The notes under the pieces: model-generated
Seen by the model: the letters and a program-made list of their open reading frames with translations, nothing else
Databases searched by the model: none
What the model was told of the DNA's origin: nothing
DNA from: Desulfobacteraceae bacterium
Lineage (GTDB): Bacteria > Desulfobacterota > Desulfobacteria > Desulfobacterales > SKZT01
DNA length: 64,000 nucleotides
Assembly (NCBI GenBank): GCA_011389745.1
Contig: JAABTQ010000008.1
Location: 61,497-125,496 of the forward strand
Reading direction: 5' to 3'
Translations under genes and position numbers: made by a program
In this document: positions 33,123 to 64,000 of the stretch, in pieces
How the letters are laid out: the number at the start of each line of letters is the position of its first letter
Numbering within the stretch: the first letter of the stretch is position 1

Positions 33123-33193
33123 CGTATTTATGATTCTATCAAAAAATGTCAAAATCCATGTTTTTTAAATCATTTGAGCGCTGAAGGCGCAAG

Positions 33194-33368
33194 ACATATC
33201 AGCCCAGGGCAACGCCCTGGGGCAGCAAGCCCCCAAATGAGGGAAGCCCTGAAAGGGCGTGACATAAAATGTCATTCCGCACGATGCCTACGGCCGTATG
33301 TCACGCCCTTTCAGGGCTTATGTTTCTTTAATTATTTTTCCCCAGGGCGTTGCCCTGGGCTGATATGT
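33194..33368. repeat. Nested long inverted repeat (REP/MITE-like palindromic element)
   Basis: The outer arms are a perfect 29 bp: ACATATCAGCCCAGGGCAACGCCCTGGGG (33194-33222) and its complement (33340-33368). The inner arms are a perfect 23 bp, AAGCCCTGAAAGGGCGTGACATA and its complement. Each arm is itself hairpin-forming. Confidence 0.8.
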
Positions 33369-33476
33369 AACGGCCTTTCAGGCCTGACTTTTTGCGTCAT
33401 CGTATTTATGCCGGTTTGCACTAAGACGTCACGAATTTAATTTGATAAGGAAAATAATTCTCAATATGCTGATAAC

Positions 33477-53497: not shown

Positions 53498-53985
53498 TTG
53501 GGATATATCCCCCAAGTGATTTTTGATTCCAAGCGATATGGATTTTTAATAGTGGTTTCTAAGAAAAAGAAAAAGAGCAAACAACGTCAACGATATAGCA
53601 AAGAACGTTCAAGACAGGATAACAAAAAGCTAAGTATCTCTGAAGCTGTTTTTAGAATAACAACTCATTTCTTCAAAAGAATCTACCTCCTGAAGAAAAA
53701 CTTCCACCGGTAGAGAAAATAATACCGATTGCAATAATCGGTTGGAATTATTCCTTGTTTCCAGAGAGTTCCCAATCGGACTTATATGAAACTATTGAAA
53801 ATACTTTGCCACCTGATATTGATGCCCTCGGGTTTGCAAGCATTATAGAGCTTATTGAAAAAATGGCGGATGAAAAACGGTCACTATACCCTGATGTTAA
53901 CCGAATGATTCAAGGATATAAGTTTAGAACAAACACCCTTGGAGAGAAAGTTCTTGATGTCACTTCAGTCTCTATCCAAAAATAA
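53498..53985 (+). pseudogene. Frame-shifted small gene of unknown family
   Basis: Lys-rich N-terminal piece (..SKKKKKSKQRQRYSKERSRQDNKKLSISEAVFR..) in one frame. The continuation (..LPPEEKLPPVEKIIPIAIIGWNYSLFPE...VTSVSIQK*) is in the -1 frame. The second piece has no ATG or SD. Confidence 0.3.
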
Positions 53986-54135
53986 GAAACCAAATCATTT
54001 AATACTCTCGGATCAGAAATTTTAAGGATACCGAAACGATTCGTAACCAGTTTTTATTTCAATGTTCCATACAAAGCTTGAATTAAGAACCAGTATATTA
54101 TAGAATATAGCAACAATTTCAGGAGGTGATTTATA

Positions 54136-54363
54136 ATGGCTACATCTGTGGAAGAACTGGCAACAAAGGCCATGGCTTTACCTATTGAAGCAAGGGCTTT
54201 ACTAGCTGAGAGACTTGTTGAAAGTCTTAATGAGGAGTCAGTCAGTGAAATCTGGCTGATCGAAACAAAAAAGCGCCGTGATGAGGTGCGAAGTGGTCAA
54301 ATTAAACCAATACCTGGTGTTAAGGTGATGGAAGAAATTCGGAACCTTATTGATGATAAATGA
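54136..54363 (+). CDS. Addiction-module antitoxin (putative addiction module component / Unstab_antitox-like)
   Basis: 75 aa: ...LALPIEARALLAERLVESL........IW..E...R..E..SG. SD AGGAGG. ATGA overlap with the toxin start. Confidence 0.7.
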   Translation: MATSVEELATKAMALPIEARALLAERLVESLNEESVSEIWLIETKKRRDEVRSGQIKPIPGVKVMEEIRNLIDDK

Positions 54364-54652
54364 GATACTCATTCCATCCAGAAGCACGCACTGAATTCAA
54401 GGAAGCGACGATTTACTATTTGAAAAAAGCCCCTCATTGGGAGCTGCGTTTTATTCCGAGGTAGAAAGCGCGATCGAAAAGATAGTCGAGAACCCGGATT
54501 TATATCGCGTGATTGATGAAGATGTACGACGTTGCTTGACCAGGCGGTTCCCACACGCTGTTCTTTATACCATCGAAGACAATTATATTTTAATACTGGC
54601 CATTATGCATTGTAGCCGGGAACCATCGTACTGGAAACATAGGCTCCCTTAG
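54360..54652 (+). pseudogene. ParE/RelE-family toxin gene interrupted by a frameshift in an A6 run
   Basis: Frame 0 reads MRYSFHPEARTEFKEATIYYLKKAPHWELRFIPR* (TAG 54462-54464). The other frame, open from 54395, reads ..FEKSPSLGAAFYSEVESAIEKIVENPDLYRVIDEDVRRCLTRRFPHAVLYTIEDNYILILAIMHCSREPSYW. One extra A in the A6 run (54423-54428) would join them. Confidence 0.65.
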
Positions 54653-54658
54653 AAATAA

Positions 54659-54744
54659 TGCGAACCTCTCATTCGAGGGGACGCGGAACACATGGGTGTT
54701 TTTTCCCGAGCATCCCGACCGCACCGCTCAATTCAACGTTCACA
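54659..54744 (+). other. attC-like imperfect palindrome, candidate B
   Basis: tgcGAACctctcATTcGAGgGGacGCGG...CCGCacCGCTCAATtcaacGTTCACA. It starts 7 nt after the toxin stop. The ends GAAC/GTTCA match candidate A, and both are followed by the identical 11-mer AATAATTATCC. Confidence 0.3.
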
Positions 54745-54986
54745 ATAATTATCCGACCGTTGAGTTTTAGAGCTCTTGGATTGTCAAGGATACAAGAGGC
54801 ATACTTGATAAATCCTCTCCTGAATGTTATTTTTCGATCATATAAATTGTTAAAATCTTGGAAATCGCCGAACCCATATGATAGTTTCCCTTCGCCGTCA
54901 GTTTTTTAGACCGAGCTTTTTTTAGGTCGATCGGCAATATGATTTTTGGGGCCAGGTTGAACGGAAAGAATCTAAAGGAGAAATAT

Positions 54987-55199
54987 ATGACCATCACCGA
55001 CAATATTTTCAAGGAGGCATTAAAGCTCACTCCCTCCGAAAAGGCACAGCTCATTGACAAGCTTATTTCCAATCTTGACAAGCCTGACAAAGAGATTGAC
55101 GAATTGTGGGCAAGAGAGGCCGAGGATAGGCTTAATGCATATGATCAAGGGAGAATCAAGGCAATTTCTTTAGAAAGAGTTCTTCAGAAATACAGGTAG
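54987..55199 (+). CDS. Addiction-module antitoxin (second copy, same family as 54136..54363)
   Basis: MTITDNIFKEALKLTPSEKAQLIDKLISNL....EIDELWAREAEDRLNAYDQGRIKAISLERVL. SD AAAGGAG. Confidence 0.65.
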   Translation: MTITDNIFKEALKLTPSEKAQLIDKLISNLDKPDKEIDELWAREAEDRLNAYDQGRIKAISLERVLQKYR

Positions 55200-55205
55200 A
55201 TAAAG

Positions 55206-55412
55206 ATGGAGATCAATTTTCTGGAAATCGCTCAAAAAGAGCTGGATAAATCACTTCAAATCATACATCCGACCATCGCCGCCACTGCTGTTCTTAAGTA
55301 TACAAGAAAAATGCGTGAATTTAAATTTGAAGAGAAATATTTTCCCAAAATGCAAGTTATGTTAACCTTAGCGAAAAACATGCGATTTGAAATGATATAC
55401 GGAGTTGCTTAA
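55206..55412 (+). pseudogene. Probable 5' remnant of a ParE/RelE-type toxin gene fused to unrelated sequence
   Basis: It begins MEINFLEIAQKELDKS like partner toxins of this antitoxin family, then loses all resemblance. It ends next to an 11-nt copy of the tRNA-Leu 3' end. Confidence 0.3.
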
Positions 55413-55445
55413 TAATGGCTTCGGCACCAAGAATCTGATTGGATT

Positions 55446-55688
55446 TTGACAAATGAAGACCACGCAATATTTGATTTTACAAGAAAACGCCCTGATCGCG
55501 TTCAGATCAAGGAGGATTGGATCAAATCAGTTATTGAGAAACCAGCAAAAATTGAAATACAATCCGATGGAAGGATCAGAAAATGGGGCAGAATAGAAGA
55601 AGTTGGAAAATATTTGAGAGTTATCATACTTGAAGATGGCGAAACGGTGCATAATGCATTTTTCGATAGGTCTTTTAAGGAGGAATGA
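55446..55688 (+). CDS. DUF4258-like small protein (putative toxin partner of DUF2283)
   Basis: ...DGRIRKWGRIEEVGKYLRVIILEDGETVHNAFFDRSF is recalled as a conserved small-protein family paired with DUF2283. Only a TTG start is available, so it may be 5'-truncated. Confidence 0.4.
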   Translation: MTNEDHAIFDFTRKRPDRVQIKEDWIKSVIEKPAKIEIQSDGRIRKWGRIEEVGKYLRVIILEDGETVHNAFFDRSFKEE

Positions 55689-55691
55689 CAC

Positions 55692-55913
55692 ATGAGGGTG
55701 AAATATTTTTCAGATACCGATACAGCTCACATAGAGTTCACAGACAAGGAAGTCCAGGAAACAAAAGAGATAAGTGAAAATATCTATATCGACGTTGATA
55801 TAAAAGGCAACATAGTCAACATGACTATTGAACATGCAAAAGATAATGCCGGACTCTGGGAATTCTCCTATCAGGAAATGTCTCGTCAAACACTGCGCCA
55901 TAAGAAACAATAA
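55692..55913 (+). CDS. DUF2283 domain protein (putative antitoxin)
   Basis: MRVKYFSDTDTAHIEFTDKEVQETKEISENIYIDVDIKGNIVNMTIEHAK is the typical DUF2283 pattern. Confidence 0.65.
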   Translation: MRVKYFSDTDTAHIEFTDKEVQETKEISENIYIDVDIKGNIVNMTIEHAKDNAGLWEFSYQEMSRQTLRHKKQ

Positions 55914-55998
55914 ATCCATTGCGAAGGCGGTAAAGGTGACGGGATGCCCTCCAAAAATTGCCGACAGCATGGTGGCAATGTTTTCGAGTGTGAGTTGA

Positions 55999-56185
55999 TC
56001 AGTCCTCCTCAAACTCGGCAGGGTGCGGCTGTTTTCCTGGACGGTGCGGCGCAGAGAATCATCAAATCCTTTTTCTGAAACAGCCTCAATCTCCAGGGTG
56101 ATGTTTACGCGGGTGCCCAGTTTGCATGAAAAATGCTGAATAATTTCCTGGGTGATGGTTGAAAAATCCAGGGAAGCACTCTTTC
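55999..56185 (-). pseudogene. 3'-terminal remnant of a larger gene (tail resembles large AAA+/DUF499-type ATPases)
   Basis: Minus strand reads ..SASLDFSTITQEIIQHFSCKLGTRVNITLEIEAVSEKGFDDSLRRTVQENSRTL. A shifted frame then ends AEFEED*. Composition changes abruptly to AT-rich at ~56186, and there is no upstream body. Confidence 0.35.
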
Positions 56186-56776: not shown

Positions 56777-57019
56777 AATAACTTTCCAGAAGGAAAACGT
56801 ATAATTTCACAATGGAATTATCAAAAAGCCAGGAAGGCCAAGAAGGTGGATGAACCATGTGGTCTTTTCCCGGCTTTTTTTAACACCTCCAAGAAGGTCA
56901 ATAGTCCTGGAAAAGGACCCAAAAAAATCGGTTGTTTTCAAGTCATACCTATTTAGTTTATAATAATTAGGCCGATTTCCAAGCCAGCAAACCTTTAAAA
57001 TGATAAATGGGAAAACCAA

Positions 57020-57793
57020 ATGAGGCATTGCTATATATTCATCGGGTGGTTTGTGTTGATTTTGTTTTTGTTGACAGGTTCGGTTTCCATTGCCGAAGAG
57101 GTGAATGAAAAAATTAAACAACCCGTGGAGGATTCGATTGCAATCCGGCAGAAGACTCAGAAAGATATTGAAAAATGGTCTGAAAAAAAATCCACGCTGG
57201 AAACTGAATATGACGCACTGGTGGAAAACCGTAAACGGTTGGCAATGGAGCGCGATCATTTAGCAAAAGAACTTGAATCCACTCAAAAGCGAATCGCCAA
57301 TCTGGAAAACCAGATCGAGGCCATGGAAAAAATATCGGAACAGCTCACACCTTTCTTATACGGAGTTTATGAGAAAGTGGTGGAGTCTGTCGATCAAAGA
57401 CTGCCCTTTTTGCAGGTGGAGCGTTCCGAACGATTGGCGAATCTTAAAAAGACCCTTGATGATCCTCAAATTGTTTTGGGAGAGAAATTTCGCAAAATTA
57501 TGGAAGCGCTTTTCGTTGAGGCCGAATACGGCAATACCGTGGAGGTTTTTCAGGAGAAAATATTTCTGGGCGATGAGGATGTGCTGGTCAACGTGTTGCG
57601 CCTGGGAAGAATCTCTCTTCTTTTTGAAACCCTGGACCAGACAACCTCCGGCTATTTTGATCTTGATGAAAATCAGTGGAAAGCACTTCCCCAATCCGCC
57701 AACCGTGATATTCGCATAGCCATGGAGATCGGGTCAAAACGGCGGCCTGCGGATGTTGTTACTTTGCCTTTGGGAAGGATCGGCGTCAAATGA
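57020..57793 (+). CDS. DUF3450 domain protein (TtpB-like, TonB2-system component)
   Basis: Signal peptide, a coiled coil, then ...RLPFLQVERSERLANLKKTLDDP...KFRKIMEA..VEAEYG.T.E. Its position before a long MotA/ExbB gene fits. Confidence 0.7.
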   Translation: MRHCYIFIGWFVLILFLLTGSVSIAEEVNEKIKQPVEDSIAIRQKTQKDIEKWSEKKSTLETEYDALVENRKRLAMERDHLAKELESTQKRIANLENQIEAMEKISEQLTPFLYGVYEKVVESVDQRLPFLQVERSERLANLKKTLDDPQIVLGEKFRKIMEALFVEAEYGNTVEVFQEKIFLGDEDVLVNVLRLGRISLLFETLDQTTSGYFDLDENQWKALPQSANRDIRIAMEIGSKRRPADVVTLPLGRIGVK

Positions 57794-59229
57794 AATATTG
57801 CATGCGGGTGTTGGGATTTGTTGTCGGATTGATGTTTTTTTTATCTAATTCTCATGTCTCTGGTGAGGATATGCGGGTCATGAGCCGGAATGCCGAGCAG
57901 AAAAAACAGGAAGTAATACGCAAAGCACAACAGGAAAAGGCTGAAGCTTTAAAAGAACAGGAGAAAATTCAAAAAAAGATTAAAGCCGATGAAGATCTTC
58001 TGGCTTCAGCCATTTCAAAACTGAAGTCTGAAAATCAAGTGCTTGATAAAAGATTACGGGAGATTAAAGAACGCCTCATCGAAAAAGCCGACCGGGAAAA
58101 AATTCTGATTGAAAAACTAGAAGAAGCAAGCTCTGAAATCCGGGAACTGGTCGGGTTTGTTCGGGTCAGTGCAAGGGATTTGGAAGGAATCCTCAACCAA
58201 AGTCCCCAAAGTGCTTTTTTTCCGGATCGTGTGGAGATTTTGGAGGCCATAAAAAATGAACAAAAATTTCCAAATATGGCCGATATTGAACAAATGGCAT
58301 CACTTTTGTTCGAGGAAACCGCTCTTTCCGGAGCGGTCAGTGTCCAAAATGGTACCATCGTGGACCGCAACGGCGCCGAAGTTGAAGCGGATATTCTTAT
58401 TCTTGGAAATTTTACCGCCGCTTACCGTCATTCATCCGAGGTTGGATTTTTGCTTTATTCCGAAACGAGCAAGCGGTTTTTTGCGCTTTCCAAACTTCCC
58501 GGCTCAAGAATTCAAAAACGGATCACCTCCTACATGGACGGCCAATCAGATTACTCGCCGATCGATATATCGCGGGGAGGTGCCCTAAGACAACTGACAC
58601 ACCAGTTGTCCATGATGGAGCAAATCCCCCAGGGTGGTCCCATTGTCTGGCCTATTATGTTGATTTTGGTTCTGGGTGTTCTGATTGTCCTGGAACGTGG
58701 TAATTTTCTGTATCGGTATAGTATAAATGCTGATCAATTCATGCAGTGCATTTCAAATTCCATTGCCGATGGTAAATGGGATGAATGCCAGGCCATGTGC
58801 GTAAAGCATGAAACAAAAGCAGTTCCTAAAATCATTCTTGCAGGGCTTCAGGCCCGGGAAATGGATCGGCAGGATATGGAAAATGCTTTGCAGGAAAGTA
58901 TTTTAAGAGAGATACCTAAACTGGAAAAATTCTTGTCAACACTCGGCGTGTTGGCAGGGATTGCGCCTTTATTGGGGTTGCTGGGTACCGTGGCTGGAAT
59001 GATCGAGACATTCCATGTTATTACCTATTTTGGAACGGGTGATCCCCGAATGATGTCCGGTGGCATTTCCGAGGCTTTGGTAACCACCATGCTGGGACTT
59101 TCAGTTGCCATTCCCCTGATGCTTTGCCATACCCTTTTAACCCGCAGGGTGGACACGATGACGGCTCAGATGGAAGAAAAAGCGGTTTCATTTGTGAACA
59201 CTGTTTTTGCCCACAGAAACAATACATGA
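57790..59229 (+). CDS. MotA/TolQ/ExbB proton-channel protein with a long periplasmic N-domain (TtpC-like)
   Basis: 479 aa. C-terminal ExbB motif: LGVLAGIAPLLGLLGTVAGMIETF...GISEALVTTMLGL. Confidence 0.75.
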   Translation: MKYCMRVLGFVVGLMFFLSNSHVSGEDMRVMSRNAEQKKQEVIRKAQQEKAEALKEQEKIQKKIKADEDLLASAISKLKSENQVLDKRLREIKERLIEKADREKILIEKLEEASSEIRELVGFVRVSARDLEGILNQSPQSAFFPDRVEILEAIKNEQKFPNMADIEQMASLLFEETALSGAVSVQNGTIVDRNGAEVEADILILGNFTAAYRHSSEVGFLLYSETSKRFFALSKLPGSRIQKRITSYMDGQSDYSPIDISRGGALRQLTHQLSMMEQIPQGGPIVWPIMLILVLGVLIVLERGNFLYRYSINADQFMQCISNSIADGKWDECQAMCVKHETKAVPKIILAGLQAREMDRQDMENALQESILREIPKLEKFLSTLGVLAGIAPLLGLLGTVAGMIETFHVITYFGTGDPRMMSGGISEALVTTMLGLSVAIPLMLCHTLLTRRVDTMTAQMEEKAVSFVNTVFAHRNNT

Positions 59230-59840
59230 TACAGGTTTTTTCAGATCAATATTATCCGTTACAGGCATATCTGGTGGCCGGGGGTGTGATCATGGTGCCA
59301 TTGCTGGCCATTTCCATTGTCATGTGGGTTCTGATTATCAATCGGATATTTTTTTTCAGGCGGCTCACCAGAAAAAACATGACCCGTGAACGCGCGGCCC
59401 GTTATATTCAGGAAGGTCAGATACCCGACCCCGAAGATTACAAGGGAGCCATTGCCATGCTGGTGACTGAATTTCAGGCCCGCCGCACCGGAACCGCGAA
59501 TATCGATCGCAATATCCTGGATGAAACGGTGATGTCGGTGGTGTCAAAACTTGATGACAACCTCACTATTATTGGGGTTCTGGCGAAGGTATCACCATTG
59601 CTTGGTTTGCTGGGAACCGTTACGGGCATGATAGCAACTTTTGACATTATTTCGGTTTTCGGCGCAGGCAATGCCAGGGCAATGGCCGGGGGTATTTCAG
59701 AAGCGTTGATTACCACCCAGACCGGTCTTATGGTGGCAATTCCCGGACTTTATGCTCATAATTTCCTGACAAGGCGGGCCGAAAATCTCAAACGCAGAGT
59801 GGCTTCGGTGGGTATGTATTTAAGCCGTAATTTAAAATGA
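59226..59840 (+). CDS. exbB: ExbB/TolQ-family proton channel
   Basis: ATG 59226 makes an ATGA overlap with the upstream stop. Motif: SPLLGLLGTVTGMIATF...GISEALITTQTGLMVAIP. Confidence 0.8.
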   Translation: MIQVFSDQYYPLQAYLVAGGVIMVPLLAISIVMWVLIINRIFFFRRLTRKNMTRERAARYIQEGQIPDPEDYKGAIAMLVTEFQARRTGTANIDRNILDETVMSVVSKLDDNLTIIGVLAKVSPLLGLLGTVTGMIATFDIISVFGAGNARAMAGGISEALITTQTGLMVAIPGLYAHNFLTRRAENLKRRVASVGMYLSRNLK

Positions 59841-59859
59841 AAGGCGGACAGAGAATATC

Positions 59860-60282
59860 ATGCTTAATATCTCAGCAGCAAGAAAAGCCAGAAGACAGCC
59901 ATTGGATTTAAACATCGCACCGCTGATCGATATGGTTTTCATTTTATTGATATTTTTTCTGGTCACCACCAGTTTTGTGAAAGAAAGCGGTGTGGATATC
60001 GACCGCCCTACGGCTGCGACAGCGGCTGTGCAGGAAAAAGCAAGCATTATGATCGGTGTGACAAAGGACAATCTCATTTTCATGGAAAACCGGGAAATCG
60101 ATATCCGCGCGGTTCGCGCCAATGTTGAAAGGGCATTGGCTGAAAATCCCGAGGGAGCAGTGGTGATCGTGGCGGACAAACACAGCCGGACCGGTATCGC
60201 TATCGAGGTTATGGATGCCTGTCGTATGGCGGGCGCAAAGATTGTCTCCCTTGCCGCCCGGTTGCCCGGAACTACGGAATAG
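59860..60282 (+). CDS. exbD: ExbD/TolR-family biopolymer transport protein
   Basis: LNIAPLIDMVFILLIFFLVTTSF. Confidence 0.85.
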   Translation: MLNISAARKARRQPLDLNIAPLIDMVFILLIFFLVTTSFVKESGVDIDRPTAATAAVQEKASIMIGVTKDNLIFMENREIDIRAVRANVERALAENPEGAVVIVADKHSRTGIAIEVMDACRMAGAKIVSLAARLPGTTE

Positions 60283-60286
60283 ACAC

Positions 60287-60997
60287 ATGATAGCGGAAAT
60301 ACTCAAAAAACCGGATGCTCATTTTCGATGGCTCAAGACAGGGTCCATTTGGACCGGTTCAATTTTATTGGCCGTTATTTTAAATATCGCACTTTTCAGC
60401 CTAATGCCCAGGTTGATTCAATCGAATCATCAGCAGACTCAAGCATTTGACAAAATCCAGACGGTTAATTTTATCCGGATTAAACCAAAGGAAATTCCGC
60501 CCAAACCCAGGGAGAAAAAAAAAGAGCCCGAAAAAAAAACACCGGAAAAACAAAACATTGTCAGAACCGCAACAAGTCCGCCCAAACCATCCTTTAAAAA
60601 ACCGGACCTGCCCTTTGAACTCAATCCTCGATTGCCGGTCGGCGCAATTCAGCTTCCGGCGCCGGATATCCAATCCATATCCTTGGAGGGTCCCGATCTG
60701 AAAGATTTTTATGAGGTGGGAGAAATCGATTCACCATTAACGCCAGTTGTTCAGATGCATCCGATTTATCCCATGATGGCAAAACGTCAGGGAACAGAAG
60801 GGTGGGTCAAGGTGAGATTTCTGGTCACTGAAACCGGTCGTGTGGAGAAAATTTCTGTCCTTGATGCACAACCTCAAAACATTTTTGACCATGCGGTCAT
60901 ACAATGCGTGAATGCATGGCGTTTCAAACCCGGTACCGTCGAGGGAATTCCGGTGAATGTCTGGGCCGAAACCGTTATACGTTTTGAATTGGAGTGA
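60287..60997 (+). CDS. tonB: Energy transducer TonB
   Basis: TM anchor, a Pro/Lys/Glu-rich linker (PKEIPPKPREKKKEPEKKTPEKQ), and a TonB_C domain (YPMMAKRQGTEGWVKVRF.V...G.V....V). ATG 60287 is preferred. Confidence 0.8.
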   Translation: MIAEILKKPDAHFRWLKTGSIWTGSILLAVILNIALFSLMPRLIQSNHQQTQAFDKIQTVNFIRIKPKEIPPKPREKKKEPEKKTPEKQNIVRTATSPPKPSFKKPDLPFELNPRLPVGAIQLPAPDIQSISLEGPDLKDFYEVGEIDSPLTPVVQMHPIYPMMAKRQGTEGWVKVRFLVTETGRVEKISVLDAQPQNIFDHAVIQCVNAWRFKPGTVEGIPVNVWAETVIRFELE

Positions 60998-62322
60998 AAA
61001 CCATGAGATTGAAAAAATCGATCCTGACGGGATTTTTGGTTTTGTTTATATTGTGTTTTGCAGCTAATGCCTCTCAAAATAAAAGCGATGATATACCTCT
61101 TGCGCTTCGTATAATTTTAAATGATGCATACAGAAATTTTGACAGACAGGAGTATAAAAAAGCGATTGAAACACTCGATATTTTTCGCACCGGAGGAAAA
61201 AACGGATTTGATCATTATCTGGTCGATTTTTCTCTGGGAAATGCCTGGTTGCACCTGAACAATCCGTCCAGGGCAGTGCCCTTTTATGAATCTGCGATCG
61301 CCAAAAATAGGGATTTTTCCGCTGCCTGGTTGAATCTTGCCAGATGCCGATATGACCTTTCACAATTTAAAAAAGCTGCGGAGGCTTTTGAAAAGGGATA
61401 TGAAACATCCTCACCCAAACAGGGGGAAACGCTTTATTATGCCGCGGCATCCTATTTTAGCGACGGCAATGCTTCAAAAACCGTTGAAGTCATGGAGCGG
61501 TTGTTTAAAAATCATCCGGAAGATATCAGGCCTGAATGGAAAGAAACTCTGGTGAATGCCTATCTTGCTGTGAAAGAAAACAAAAAGGCCCTTGTGTTCA
61601 TGGAAGAACTTGTAACCCAATTTACCGGCGAAAAAAAACTCCAATGGCAGGAGACGATTTTATATCATTATCTTTCCATGAATATGCAAAAGAAGGCCCT
61701 TCGGATGGCTGACCAGCTTTCGGAAACATATCCTCTCGAACCCAAGTGGTGGAAAGCCCTTGCTCACATTCATCTTTCTATGGATCACCACCGGGAAGCA
61801 TTGGCCGCAATGACCATTTACGGATATTTGCAACCTTACAATGAGAGGGAAAAAATACTTATGGCCGAGCTTAGCCTCATGGCGGGAGTTCCGTCCAAAG
61901 CGGTTACTTATTATGAATCACTGCAGGCTCAAACTTCCCAATCAGAAATCATTGTCAAAATAGTTCAAAGCTATCAGATGATGAACCAGCCGGAACAGGC
62001 CTTGAAATGGGCTGAAAAAGGTCTTTTGCAAGCCAAATCATCGGAATTGATGATGCAAAAGGCCACTCTTTTGTATGAACTTCGCCAATATGAAAAATCC
62101 ATCCAGACTTTCGAGTCTTTTATAAATGAAAAAAAAGGCGATATCGGCCTGGCATGGCTGATGATCGGCTTTGCAGCGGCTCAGGACAACAATCTGGATA
62201 AGGCCGTTATCGCTTTTGAAAATGCCTCAAAATTTGAACGCCATCAAAAAACAGCTATATCCCATCTGGAGCAGATGAGGAATATCAAAAGTTCGGCATT
62301 TCATCAGGGAAATTTGCCATGA
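60994..62322 (+). CDS. Tetratricopeptide-repeat protein (TtpD-like)
   Basis: Signal peptide plus multiple TPR-like repeats. It is the last gene of the TonB2-type cluster. Confidence 0.7.
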   Translation: MKTMRLKKSILTGFLVLFILCFAANASQNKSDDIPLALRIILNDAYRNFDRQEYKKAIETLDIFRTGGKNGFDHYLVDFSLGNAWLHLNNPSRAVPFYESAIAKNRDFSAAWLNLARCRYDLSQFKKAAEAFEKGYETSSPKQGETLYYAAASYFSDGNASKTVEVMERLFKNHPEDIRPEWKETLVNAYLAVKENKKALVFMEELVTQFTGEKKLQWQETILYHYLSMNMQKKALRMADQLSETYPLEPKWWKALAHIHLSMDHHREALAAMTIYGYLQPYNEREKILMAELSLMAGVPSKAVTYYESLQAQTSQSEIIVKIVQSYQMMNQPEQALKWAEKGLLQAKSSELMMQKATLLYELRQYEKSIQTFESFINEKKGDIGLAWLMIGFAAAQDNNLDKAVIAFENASKFERHQKTAISHLEQMRNIKSSAFHQGNLP

Positions 62323-62482
62323 TAGCGATGAATTCGTTGCTGTGGAGTCTCCCGGATTTTCCCTGGATATTAAGGGAGTTGTAATGATAATATTTACTGT
62401 TTCGGATGATGATTTCGACAGGAATAAACGGATATTGCCTGATCTGAAAAACTTGGCCCAATAATGTATAAAACCTGATGTT

Positions 62483-63168
62483 TCAGTTAAGTTTGGACAT
62501 GCGGATCTTTTTGAGTATTTTTGGGATAAAGAGCGAAAATGCAAAAAGGGTAAGAGAAAAAAAAACTTTCCAGCTCATAAGCTCCTCCCACCGGCCGCTG
62601 ATCCAAACATCTCTGAGGGTTCCTACGAAGAAGGTAAAAACAAAAGTACCCACAATAATGCCTAAGGCAGTGCCGAAAAAATAATCCCAAAAGTGAACTT
62701 TGGTTAATCCCATCCCGAAATTCATCGGGGTAAACGGAAAATAGATCAAGCGCAGGTAAAGTACTGTGGCAAAGCCGTTTCGTTCGATGCATCATATCGT
62801 TTCAGCCTGTCACCAATGAGGGTGGCAGCAAAATCACGCCCCAGATATCGCCCGATAAAAAAAGCCATGCTCGATCCGAGCATGGCACCCAGCCAGACAT
62901 ATGCAAATCCCCAATATGGACCGAAAACTGCTGCCCCCATGGCTGTCAAAAGTGTACCGGGAAGAAAGATACAGACACCACCGGCATAAATGAACACAAA
63001 CATCAAAGGTGCCCAAATACCAGCCGATGCCAGGAAAAGCTCGAGATAATCGGCTGTAAAATATTCTTTTGCCGATGAAAAACGTACTAAAAAAATGGCT
63101 GCCATAGTGAACATAAGCAGGATGACTGCCTTGATGAGCGCGGATCTTTTATTGAGATGGGTTTTCAT
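62483..63168 (-). pseudogene. TVP38/TMEM64 (DedA/SNARE-associated superfamily) membrane protein gene with a frameshift
   Basis: The N-part (63168..62746) ends ..GRYLGRDFAATLIGDRLKRYDASNETALPQYFTCA*. A different frame continues with the family-typical ..ERNGFATVLYLRLIYFPFTPMNFGMGLTKVHFWDYFFGTALGIIVGTF.. A 1-nt indel near 62787 is implied. Confidence 0.6.
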
Positions 63169-63299
63169 GAAGATTACTCTTAACTATATCATTTGCAGCT
63201 TTGCAGGGAGAAGCCATTTGTTAAATGATTTAAGTGGTGCATTTGAAAAATCGCTTATCACATGCACCACATCACAATTGCTGTTTTCAAAGATAATGA

Positions 63300-63569
63300 T
63301 TACAGAATTCCTAAATGACGTCGAATACTCGATTCAATTTCCTCCTGGCTTACAGGGCAACCCTGAAATAGAAGCTCATCGCCCAGCATTATTGCAGGAG
63401 CAGCTGGTAGATCTGAATCAGGATGTTTCAGCTGCCGATATGCTTCTCTGGATTTCGATATCGTTTCGATTTTTAAATTGTATTTTCTTCCCAGCCTGGG
63501 AAGAATTTGAAGGAAATGCCCTCATGTATTTCCAATTGGTTCGTTTAAGAACAGGTGAAGCTTTAACAT
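63300..63569 (-). CDS. Candidate selenoprotein, paralogue 2 (TGA at codon 16 read as Sec); not in ORF track
   Basis: AGGAGGA, 5 nt, ATG 63569. Reads MLKLHLFLNEPIGNT-U(63524-63522)-GHFLQILPRLGRKYNLKIETISK...RRHLGIL*, with TAA at 63302-63300. A hairpin CUUCCCA-GGC-UGGGAAG lies 18 nt after the TGA. It aligns gap-free with paralogue 1 across the TGA. Confidence 0.6.
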
Positions 63570-63594
63570 CTTTTTCCTCCTGTATCCCGTATCA

Positions 63595-63915
63595 TTATGA
63601 TTTCCCCAAGAGCTTTTTCAGCATTCCTTTTTTGGGCTCTTCAGGTTCCGGAAGGCCCAGATGGCGGCAAATGCAAACTTCAACCTCATGTTCCGAAACA
63701 TTTTCTCCCTCCACCACAATCTCTTCCTCCACCATGACCGCCGGGGCCACGGGCAGGTCTAACCCGAAGTATCCATCGGTATGGTAATCCGCCTTGGGCT
63801 TGGAAATAACTTCAATGTCTAAAGGATATTTTTTGCCCAACCTGGGCATCATCTGTTTGAAGTTCTTTCAGGGCTTACCATTGGGTTCGTTGAGAAAAAA
63901 TCGAACTTTAAGCAT
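63595..63915 (-). CDS. Candidate selenoprotein, paralogue 1 (TGA at codon 16 read as Sec); ORF track shows only the 3' part
   Basis: AAGGAGA, 5 nt, ATG 63915. Reads MLKVRFFLNEPNGKP-U(63870-63868)-KNFKQMMPRLGKKYPLDIEVISK...CRHLGLPEPEEPKKGMLKKLLGKS*. A hairpin UGCCCA-GGU-UGGGCA lies 19 nt after the TGA. There is no SD before the track's internal ATG. Confidence 0.65.
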
Positions 63916-63960
63916 TGTTATCTCCTTTGATCAGTGTTTGTGATTTGTTGGTTATTAACC

Positions 63961-64000
63961 TTATTTTTTGAGTTCACCCATGCGGTTCAGAAATGGTTCC
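63961..64000 (-). CDS. 3' end of an upstream gene (unknown), same strand as the Sec-candidate pair
   Basis: The minus frame reads ..EPFLNRMGELKK* with TAA at 63963-63961. It is open to the window edge and too short to identify. Confidence 0.3.
   Translation of the reverse strand, partial: EPFLNRMGELKK

Follow-up and report, generated by a model that had tools for sequence, protein, structure and literature searches.

The Rdx family (SelW/SelT/SelH-like, CxxU) combines a small thioredoxin-like fold with selenocysteine (Sec, U) at the second CxxC-equivalent position, proteins of the MTH895/ArsE type (TIGR00412, Pfam Thioredoxin_3) have a minimal thioredoxin fold with a CxxC motif, and ArsD, a soft-ligand carrier with a thioredoxin fold and an ArsR-type regulator, hands its cargo to a membrane pump. 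Closest to the genes described here is TsoC, a GxxU protein with one Sec that is listed with TsoA, TsoB, TsoX and TsoY in a 2026 review (PMC13188914); according to this review, TsoA is marked by an LULAxC motif, TsoB is a rhodanese/DsbD fusion with a UxxxxU motif, and the name Tso, for 'three selenoprotein operon', is credited to Haft & Tolstoy, mSystems 2025. We analyzed a 64,000-nucleotide (nt) stretch of contig JAABTQ010000008.1 from a Desulfobacteraceae bacterium, hereafter the window. Two tandem genes at its far end, tsoC-A and tsoC-B, both on the minus strand, are very probably TsoC selenoprotein genes at the 3' end of a Tso locus in a Desulfobacterales-like bacterium. This kind of object is already known: the TsoC family was named in 2025 and has a curated model, NCBIfam NF045708, an equivalog entitled "NEPxGxxU motif selenoprotein TsoC" with a cutoff of 45 bits. 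An earlier reading of the same DNA from its letters alone (the original prediction) had proposed a pair of selenoproteins in a family that it did not recognize as a named one; the pair stands, supported by every check it proposed that was run here, and the family has a name, TsoC (NF045708).

With U written as C, the products of tsoC-A and tsoC-B score 145.8 and 113.5 bits against NF045708, 2.5 to 3 times its cutoff, over profile positions 1-86/87. They share the motif and the Sec column with the family, reading NEPNGKP-TGA in A and NEPIGNT-TGA in B, each with TGA at codon 16. Also in common with TsoC are the position directly after tsoB, a host among the Thermodesulfobacteriota and the frequent VTT/DedA neighbor; no defining difference separates the window genes from the family, although here there are two tandem copies and the VTT neighbor is frameshifted. 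The same cutoff is passed by all paralog types, by the forms with Cys in place of Sec and by the fusions considered below, and Pfam returned no match for A or B, even at E up to 10. Since the curated TsoC model exists, the NCBI pipeline would name both genes.

The gene tsoC-A (63595..63915, minus strand) comprises 106 codons including Sec16, with the motif NEPNGKPU. Its ATG at 63915 lies 5 nt from a Shine-Dalgarno sequence, AAGGAGA (63921..63927, minus strand), and opens a frame of 15 sense codons, the TGA at codon 16 (63868..63870, minus strand) and 90 codons before the stop codon TAA at 63597-63595. The second gene, tsoC-B (63300..63569, minus strand; 89 codons including Sec16, motif NEPIGNTU), begins 25 nt downstream of tsoC-A, with its own Shine-Dalgarno sequence AGGAGGA (63575..63581, minus strand) at the same 5-nt spacing from ATG 63569, TGA again at codon 16 (63522..63524, minus strand) and TAA at 63302-63300. 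The two proteins align without gaps, 43 of 88 positions being identical (49%, E 2e-29), and the identities flank the TGA. A list of open reading frames (ORFs) reveals little of this arrangement: tsoC-A is visible only as an 85-residue tail and tsoC-B only as an out-of-frame ORF of 35 residues (63418-63525). The 230-residue plus-strand ORF at 63095..63787, which has no Pfam family, is not a gene; it is antisense to two strongly conserved genes, as fits a shadow ORF. The original prediction is reproduced in all these respects, from the coordinates, Shine-Dalgarno sequences, codon-16 TGAs and translations on the minus strand to the ungapped alignment whose identities flank the TGA, the concealment of all but the tail of copy A in the ORF track and the antisense shadow.

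The UGA at codon 16 of each mRNA is very probably decoded as Sec, most plausibly through SelB-dependent insertion in both genes. A genome scan with one genome per species found relatives in 363 genomes; counts of loci given here come from the best 80, nearly all of which are labeled Desulfobacterales, Desulfobulbales, Syntrophobacterales or 'delta proteobacterium'. In the loci from these approximately 80 Thermodesulfobacteriota genomes, 108 homologous gene copies have TGA at the aligned codon, and in all 108 the prefix MLKVRFFLNEPNGKP, or its paralog variants, is in frame. Eight relatives have a true Cys in the Sec column (proteins P0014, P0016, P0018, P0034, P0035, P0046, P0067 and P0085), encoded by TGT or TGC in P0014, P0016 and P0034 and verified at the DNA level in loci L004, L086 and L087. 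The expectation that homologs would extend N-terminally through MLK.FLNEP.G and carry an in-frame TGA or Cys at the aligned position was therefore borne out. Two further proteins, P0002 and the fragment P0220, have Arg at the Sec position (GKPRK), which could reflect a TGA-to-CGA change or an error.

Public gene calls give a different picture. A protein search returned 1058 relatives, mostly calls of 83-85 residues that start at the Met after the TGA, with about 30 at full length, and an exact look-up of the 85-residue tail of A gave no record; when 1.84 billion representatives were searched with a profile, 211 TsoC members emerged at E up to 0.001, a number that marks a compact family, and most of these start at profile position 22, the first Met past the TGA, as expected from truncated gene calls. 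Taken at face value, such calls agree with the ORF list and would mean that the TGA terminates translation, that the product is the 85-residue ORF from MMPRLG, that the 15 upstream codons are a leader peptide and that 'gene B' is no gene. We regard this as very improbable. Nowhere is the protein more conserved than over the 15 upstream codons, which are always in frame and contiguous with the remainder; homologs with a Cys codon read straight through; and in a structural model of the Cys homolog P0014, strand b1 and the active-site turn of the thioredoxin fold come from these same codons. A ribosome-binding site precedes ATG 63915 but not the downstream ATG, and copy B lacks any in-frame start after its TGA, yet is conserved with a Shine-Dalgarno sequence of its own. 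Reading the raw sequence can thus recover selenoprotein genes that are truncated by ORF lists and by most public calls.

Reassignment of TGA to Trp or Gly, genome-wide or context-free and with no Sec insertion, would be another way to read through the codon, and the full-length calls in ENA do show a 'W' at position 16, where the codon proved to be TGA in the one case checked (L005). The probability of this reading is next to nil: TGA is the commonest stop codon in the window, where it ends 22 of 46 long ORFs and so is not reassigned genome-wide, and the homologs without TGA have Cys at this position, neither Trp nor Gly. The lineage is, moreover, rich in selenoproteins, 56 selenoprotein genes being listed for the genome of L069, which carries a TsoC homolog (PMC13326102). 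A scan of the window for other TGA-interrupted genes returned only neighboring genes that share a frame and no convincing second selenoprotein.

Comparison of relatives indicates that each TGA is followed by a SECIS-type hairpin (SECIS, selenocysteine insertion sequence) under nucleotide-level selection. In tsoC-A the hairpin occupies 63834..63848 (minus strand; UGCCCA-GGU-UGGGCA, 6 base pairs [bp], -8.6 kcal/mol); in tsoC-B it occupies 63485..63505 (minus strand; UUCUUCCCA-GGC-UGGGAAGAA, a 9-bp stem of -11.8 kcal/mol) around a conserved core at 63502-63488, and a 45-nt segment folds at -17.4 kcal/mol with a z score of -3.1 against shuffles. Both hairpins start 19 nt past the UGA and have a 3-nt loop beginning with GG, 25 nt past the UGA. 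Published rules for bacterial SECIS elements specify a loop of 3-9 nt, a G in the first two loop positions and a distance of 16-37 nt from the UGA (PMC13188914), and 101 of 101 Sec genes satisfy them. Across 99 distinct sequences, with columns counted from the UGA, six pairs between columns 23-28 and 32-37 are preserved in 90% of cases or more, and pairing in register amounts to 83% of cells, against 30-45% when the register is slid. At one pair the bases change together: columns 24-36 hold G-C in 82 sequences, U-A in 7, C-G in 2 and G-U in 5, and the two copies in the window themselves differ here, with U-A in copy B where copy A has G-C. The hairpin would act as a bacterial SECIS that recruits SelB with Sec-tRNA, a role suggested by its conservation.

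The stem is made of Pro and Gly codons, so that the hairpin could be a mere by-product of the conserved P-R-L-G (CCN...GGN pairing) with no decoding role, and one Cys form, in L004 (PVLG), does retain a weak 4-bp hairpin of -5.2 kcal/mol. This explanation is hardly plausible, in our view, because the codons of the stem (CCC AGG TTG GGC) are frozen at their third positions well beyond the usage in the same genes, which we took as background: Pro is CCC in 100 of 102 cases (background 37%), Arg is the rare AGG in 94 of 94 (13%), Leu is TTG in 78 of 103 (17%) and Gly is GGC in 88 of 101 (40%). Furthermore, the B copy of L065 has a perfect stem, CUCUCA/UGAGAG, while coding for S-G-V-R rather than P-R-L-G, and Met-3 and Gly-3 covary as G-C or U-A. 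In Cys forms, PRLG has given way to PKLD, PKFD or PQLA with loss of the hairpin, the folds reaching only -5.2, -1.0 and 0 kcal/mol. A hairpin selected as RNA is the reading that we retain. The original prediction had placed such hairpins at equivalent positions after both TGAs, and they prove to be conserved at synonymous sites and to covary; its lower-stem extensions fared less well, being predicted for copy A alone and absent from the RNAalifold consensus of relatives (79 + 21), which consists of the 6-bp hairpin alone. Its suggestion of SECIS geometry agrees with the published rules, but not with any Rfam SECIS model, and at the Rfam gathering score nothing was found in the tsoC region.

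The TsoC family is a thioredoxin fold with a single reactive chalcogen, which may occupy either position of the CxxC. An AlphaFold2 model of the Cys homolog P0014, 66% identical to A, has a mean predicted local distance difference test score (pLDDT) of 82.8 and the topology b1-a1-b2-(a)-b3-b4-a3 (b1 3-7, a1 15-29, b2 33-37, b3 59-62, b4 65-69, a3 75-86), and a Foldseek search of the PDB with this model returned a top 50 of nearly all thioredoxins, plus ArsD. In a BLASTP alignment, PCKHFKQMIPVLGQKY pairs with PCKMIKPFFHSLSEKY of human thioredoxin (PCK..K..L..KY), a register in which Gly13 falls on Cys32 and residue 16 on Cys35, which is the second of the two Cys in WCGPC; a weak profile match to thioredoxin 6mos has the same register, with Cys16 on the second Cys of CSVC. 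Sequence searches of the PDB with two family profiles gave no significant match, the best thioredoxin having E 0.59. The CxxC redox pair is absent, the four positions reading G-K-P-U in A and G-N-T-U in B with U in the place of the second Cys, and relatives that pass the TsoC cutoff have C-x-x-S or, in one case, G-K-C-C at the same positions; this is the pattern of a mono-thiol or mono-selenol variant rather than of a dithiol reductase. By this model, each product would be a cytoplasmic thioredoxin-fold protein of about 90-105 residues with Sec on the first turn of helix 1; a cytoplasmic location is suggested by the lack of a signal peptide and by the position of TsoC N-terminal to a VTT protein in the fusions of L052 and L070. 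The original prediction, a small protein of thioredoxin fold whose only Sec lies in GxxU, agrees with the fold of the Cys-homolog model, but its statement that a conserved resolving Cys is missing is incorrect as regards copy A, in which Cys83 (ICRHLG) is at least 90% conserved among A-type proteins.

Measured against the other small thioredoxin-like proteins, TsoC is distinct. MTH895/ArsE-type proteins are of similar size and share the minimal thioredoxin fold and a C-terminal half of the form VPA..V..GE..V.G..s.eE, but TIGR00412 matches TsoC at 14.5 bits against a cutoff of 62, over residues 56-80 only, and has CxxC where TsoC has GxxU. Relative to the Rdx family, Gly replaces the first Cys in TsoC, there is no Pfam match and the operon context differs. 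A UxxC family of small thioredoxin-like selenoproteins, from the same 2025 paper as TsoC, matches residues 42-84 of copy B weakly (12.5 bits against a cutoff of 105), and its Sec is at the first position, that of TsoC at the second. ArsD (PDB 3kgk and 3mwh, ranked 3rd and 23rd by Foldseek) is a thioredoxin fold of the same size, and its ArsR-type regulator has a counterpart in the ArsR/SmtB-type TsoR of Tso; however, it is only 11-14% identical to TsoC, and its As(III) triad, Cys12-Cys13-Cys18, is absent in TsoC, which has a single Sec instead.

Of the operon, only the 3' end falls within the window; the rest lies past its edge. The last 12 codons of tsoB, the rhodanese/DsbD-fusion selenoprotein gene, fall at 63999-63964 (...EPFLNRMGELKK) and are followed by TAA, the feature spanning 63961..63999 on the minus strand; this tail is identical to that of TsoB in L088, whose DNA is 96% identical over window positions 64000-63594 and whose upstream gene encodes rhodanese, DsbD_TM and thioredoxin domains. 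A complete order is seen in L001, the closest long relative: TsoR, TsoA, a DnaJ-like protein, a DVU_1556-like S-adenosylmethionine (SAM) methyltransferase, TsoB, TsoC and a VTT/DedA gene, with scores of 166 bits for TsoR (ArsR/SmtB type), 215.7 for TsoA and 975 for TsoB against NF045694. TsoB of L001 has the rhodanese loop FY-U-DGLA-U-VRS, a DsbD membrane domain and a thioredoxin domain with WCAPC. Past the VTT gene, the opposite strand of L001 carries TPR-TonB-ExbD-ExbB genes, the same as window positions 57000-62322. The order TsoA, TsoB, TsoC, or in fuller form TsoR-TsoA-(methyltransferase)-TsoB-TsoC, is repeated in most loci, TsoA being present in about 52 of those fetched. Where the upstream sequence is long enough, most loci have the thioredoxin motif of TsoB approximately 310-520 nt upstream of tsoC-A when the genes are adjacent, or 600-1400 nt upstream where a second tsoC intervenes.

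Downstream of the pair lies a gene for a VTT/DedA-family membrane protein (62483..63168, minus strand; 92.7 bits for PF09335 once the frame is repaired), the usual downstream neighbor of tsoC, found there in about 35 loci. In the window, a deletion of 4 nt near 62790, at a GATGATG repeat, splits it between two frames relative to the intact gene of L001; the break marks either a pseudogene or an assembly error. Frame splits of the VTT gene also occur in L008 and L056, at other positions. In L052 (5959-~6960) and L070 (186-~1190), TsoC and a VTT/DedA protein form translational fusions, which are probably real, given that the linker is conserved between the two. TsoC is fused to a DVU_1556-like SAM methyltransferase in P0135 (396 residues), the same type of enzyme as is encoded upstream of tsoB in L001. 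In P0135, P0122, P0127 and P0128, GxxU is replaced by CxxS and the C terminus carries a hydrophobic/basic extension.

The two window genes belong to different paralog types. In addition to Cys83, which is Arg in the B type, A-type proteins alone have a basic C-terminal tail, PEPE..KKG.L.RLFGK. The tsoC-A product is 87% identical to TsoC of L001, whereas the best relatives of tsoC-B come from L030, L016 and L037, where they are the downstream 'B' copies, at 55-59% identity, compared with 49% to A, which makes tsoC-B an old paralog and no recent duplicate. A second tsoC follows the first by 331-363 nt in ten other loci, and approximately eleven have a further variant, NDPCGLTU, located either between tsoB and tsoC or some 1 kb upstream. 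Copy B is ancient, faster-evolving and present in a minority of genomes.

Whether copy B still functions here deserves separate consideration. A 1.3-kb segment holding tsoC-B and the VTT gene (63593-62301) is missing in L088 and L089, where the flanks are 96% and 90% identical, and L001 has the VTT gene but lacks tsoC-B; together with the VTT frameshift, this absence from close relatives means that copy B may be dispensable or decaying in this genome. In the stronger form of the argument, tsoC-B and the adjacent VTT gene are relics and only tsoC-A is functional, which would also suit the faster divergence of the B type (best identity 59%, against 87% for A) and the departure of the window copy from the B consensus around residues 45-53. 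We consider this quite unlikely. The frame of B is intact, with a strong Shine-Dalgarno sequence, TGA at the right codon and the more stable hairpin of the pair; its score against the family model is 113.5 bits; the order A-B-VTT recurs in distant families (L015, L030, L047, L048, L056 and L065); and an assembly error could account for the VTT frameshift.

As TsoC has a single selenol and no partner thiol in its motif, a classical role as a dithiol reductase is unlikely. TsoC may instead be a carrier or relay with one selenol that acts, together with its operon partners, on the inner face of the membrane. In DsbD proteins, the membrane domain is fed by a cytoplasmic thioredoxin. Contacts with the partners could take two forms: (a) intermediates of the Se-S or Se-Se kind would link TsoC to the DsbD-type membrane domain of TsoB, either feeding this domain or accepting from it, which we put forward tentatively as a possibility; or (b) the selenol would hold a soft chalcogen or metalloid ligand and pass it to the SAM methyltransferase and/or the VTT/DedA protein, which we find somewhat doubtful. 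The second option is suggested by the methyltransferase-TsoC fusion P0135, the TsoC-VTT fusions, the ArsR/SmtB regulator and the ArsD-like fold. A more specific version, unlikely as it stands, would make TsoC a selenol 'hand' that captures a soft chalcogen or metalloid (e.g., a Se, Te or As compound), which would be methylated and passed to the DedA/VTT protein, with A and B, where both are present, perhaps forming a heterodimer through a Se-Se or Se-ligand-Se bridge, a CxxC split over two proteins; the fusions to VTT in two species and to the methyltransferase, the regulator and the fold speak for this version as well. If this holds true, a defined small-molecule cargo could be assigned to a bacterial protein of the DedA family. 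A link between DedA-family proteins and selenite resistance appears in the reference list of PMC10127716 and serves as a lead only.

Several observations weigh against the account as a whole. The energy of the copy A hairpin is unremarkable (z -0.5 to -1.9 against shuffles), and the significance of this hairpin derives from its conservation in relatives rather than from its energy. Covariation is limited, with double changes in more than two sequences at one pair only, which follows from a hairpin element that is nearly invariant. Rfam, searched at E up to 10 over 63250-64000, yielded no SECIS family and chance matches only, and the window holds no tRNA-Sec and no Sec-insertion gene, the sel genes having been sought among ten size-matched ORFs. 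The Foldseek scores are modest (template modeling score ~0.5, E from 2e-3), and the modeled structure is that of a 66%-identical Cys homolog rather than of a window protein. The VTT partner is frameshifted, the closest relatives lack the segment with tsoC-B and VTT, and the proposed carrier or relay role is read from gene neighborhood and fusions. Taking these points together with the conservation of frame, codon and hairpin, we judge the explanation as a whole, with the single-selenol role as its more tentative part, to be highly likely. The paralog types, the mono-thiol CxxS relatives, the fusions and the presence/absence polymorphism of tsoC-B and VTT offer leads for future tests of Tso.

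Some neighborhoods differ from the usual one. The Cys-type tsoC of L086 (210-1910) and L087 (115-1812) adjoins a gene for a 566-residue protein with DUF8269 and a TauE/SafE permease domain; this membrane protein was tested as a relative of TsoB and is unrelated. In L004 (885-1403), the Cys-type gene adjoins those for a GcvH-related protein (NF045810) and an ArsR-type regulator. A promoter and terminator scan of 62300-64000 in the window gave counts equal to those of shuffled sequences; a terminator-like 10-bp GC-rich hairpin with a T-run at 62864-62886 (minus strand) lies inside the VTT coding sequence (...GAMLGSSMAFFIG...), and the scan total was no higher than in shuffles. Farther away in the window, positions 53700-56000 (plus strand) form a stretch without long ORFs that contains small genes resembling toxin-antitoxin systems (two Unstab_antitox, one ParE_toxin and one DUF2283). 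Two matches to the Acido-Lenti-1 small RNA exceed the gathering score, at 33177-33221 (minus strand) and 33341-33385 (plus strand), with 39 and 43.9 bits, 120 nt apart and in opposite orientation. Cultured carriers of the Tso locus include Desulforhopalus sp. IMCC35007, which has tsoC-A, tsoC-B and a VTT gene, Desulforapulum autotrophicum and Desulfoprunum benzoelyticum DSM 28570.

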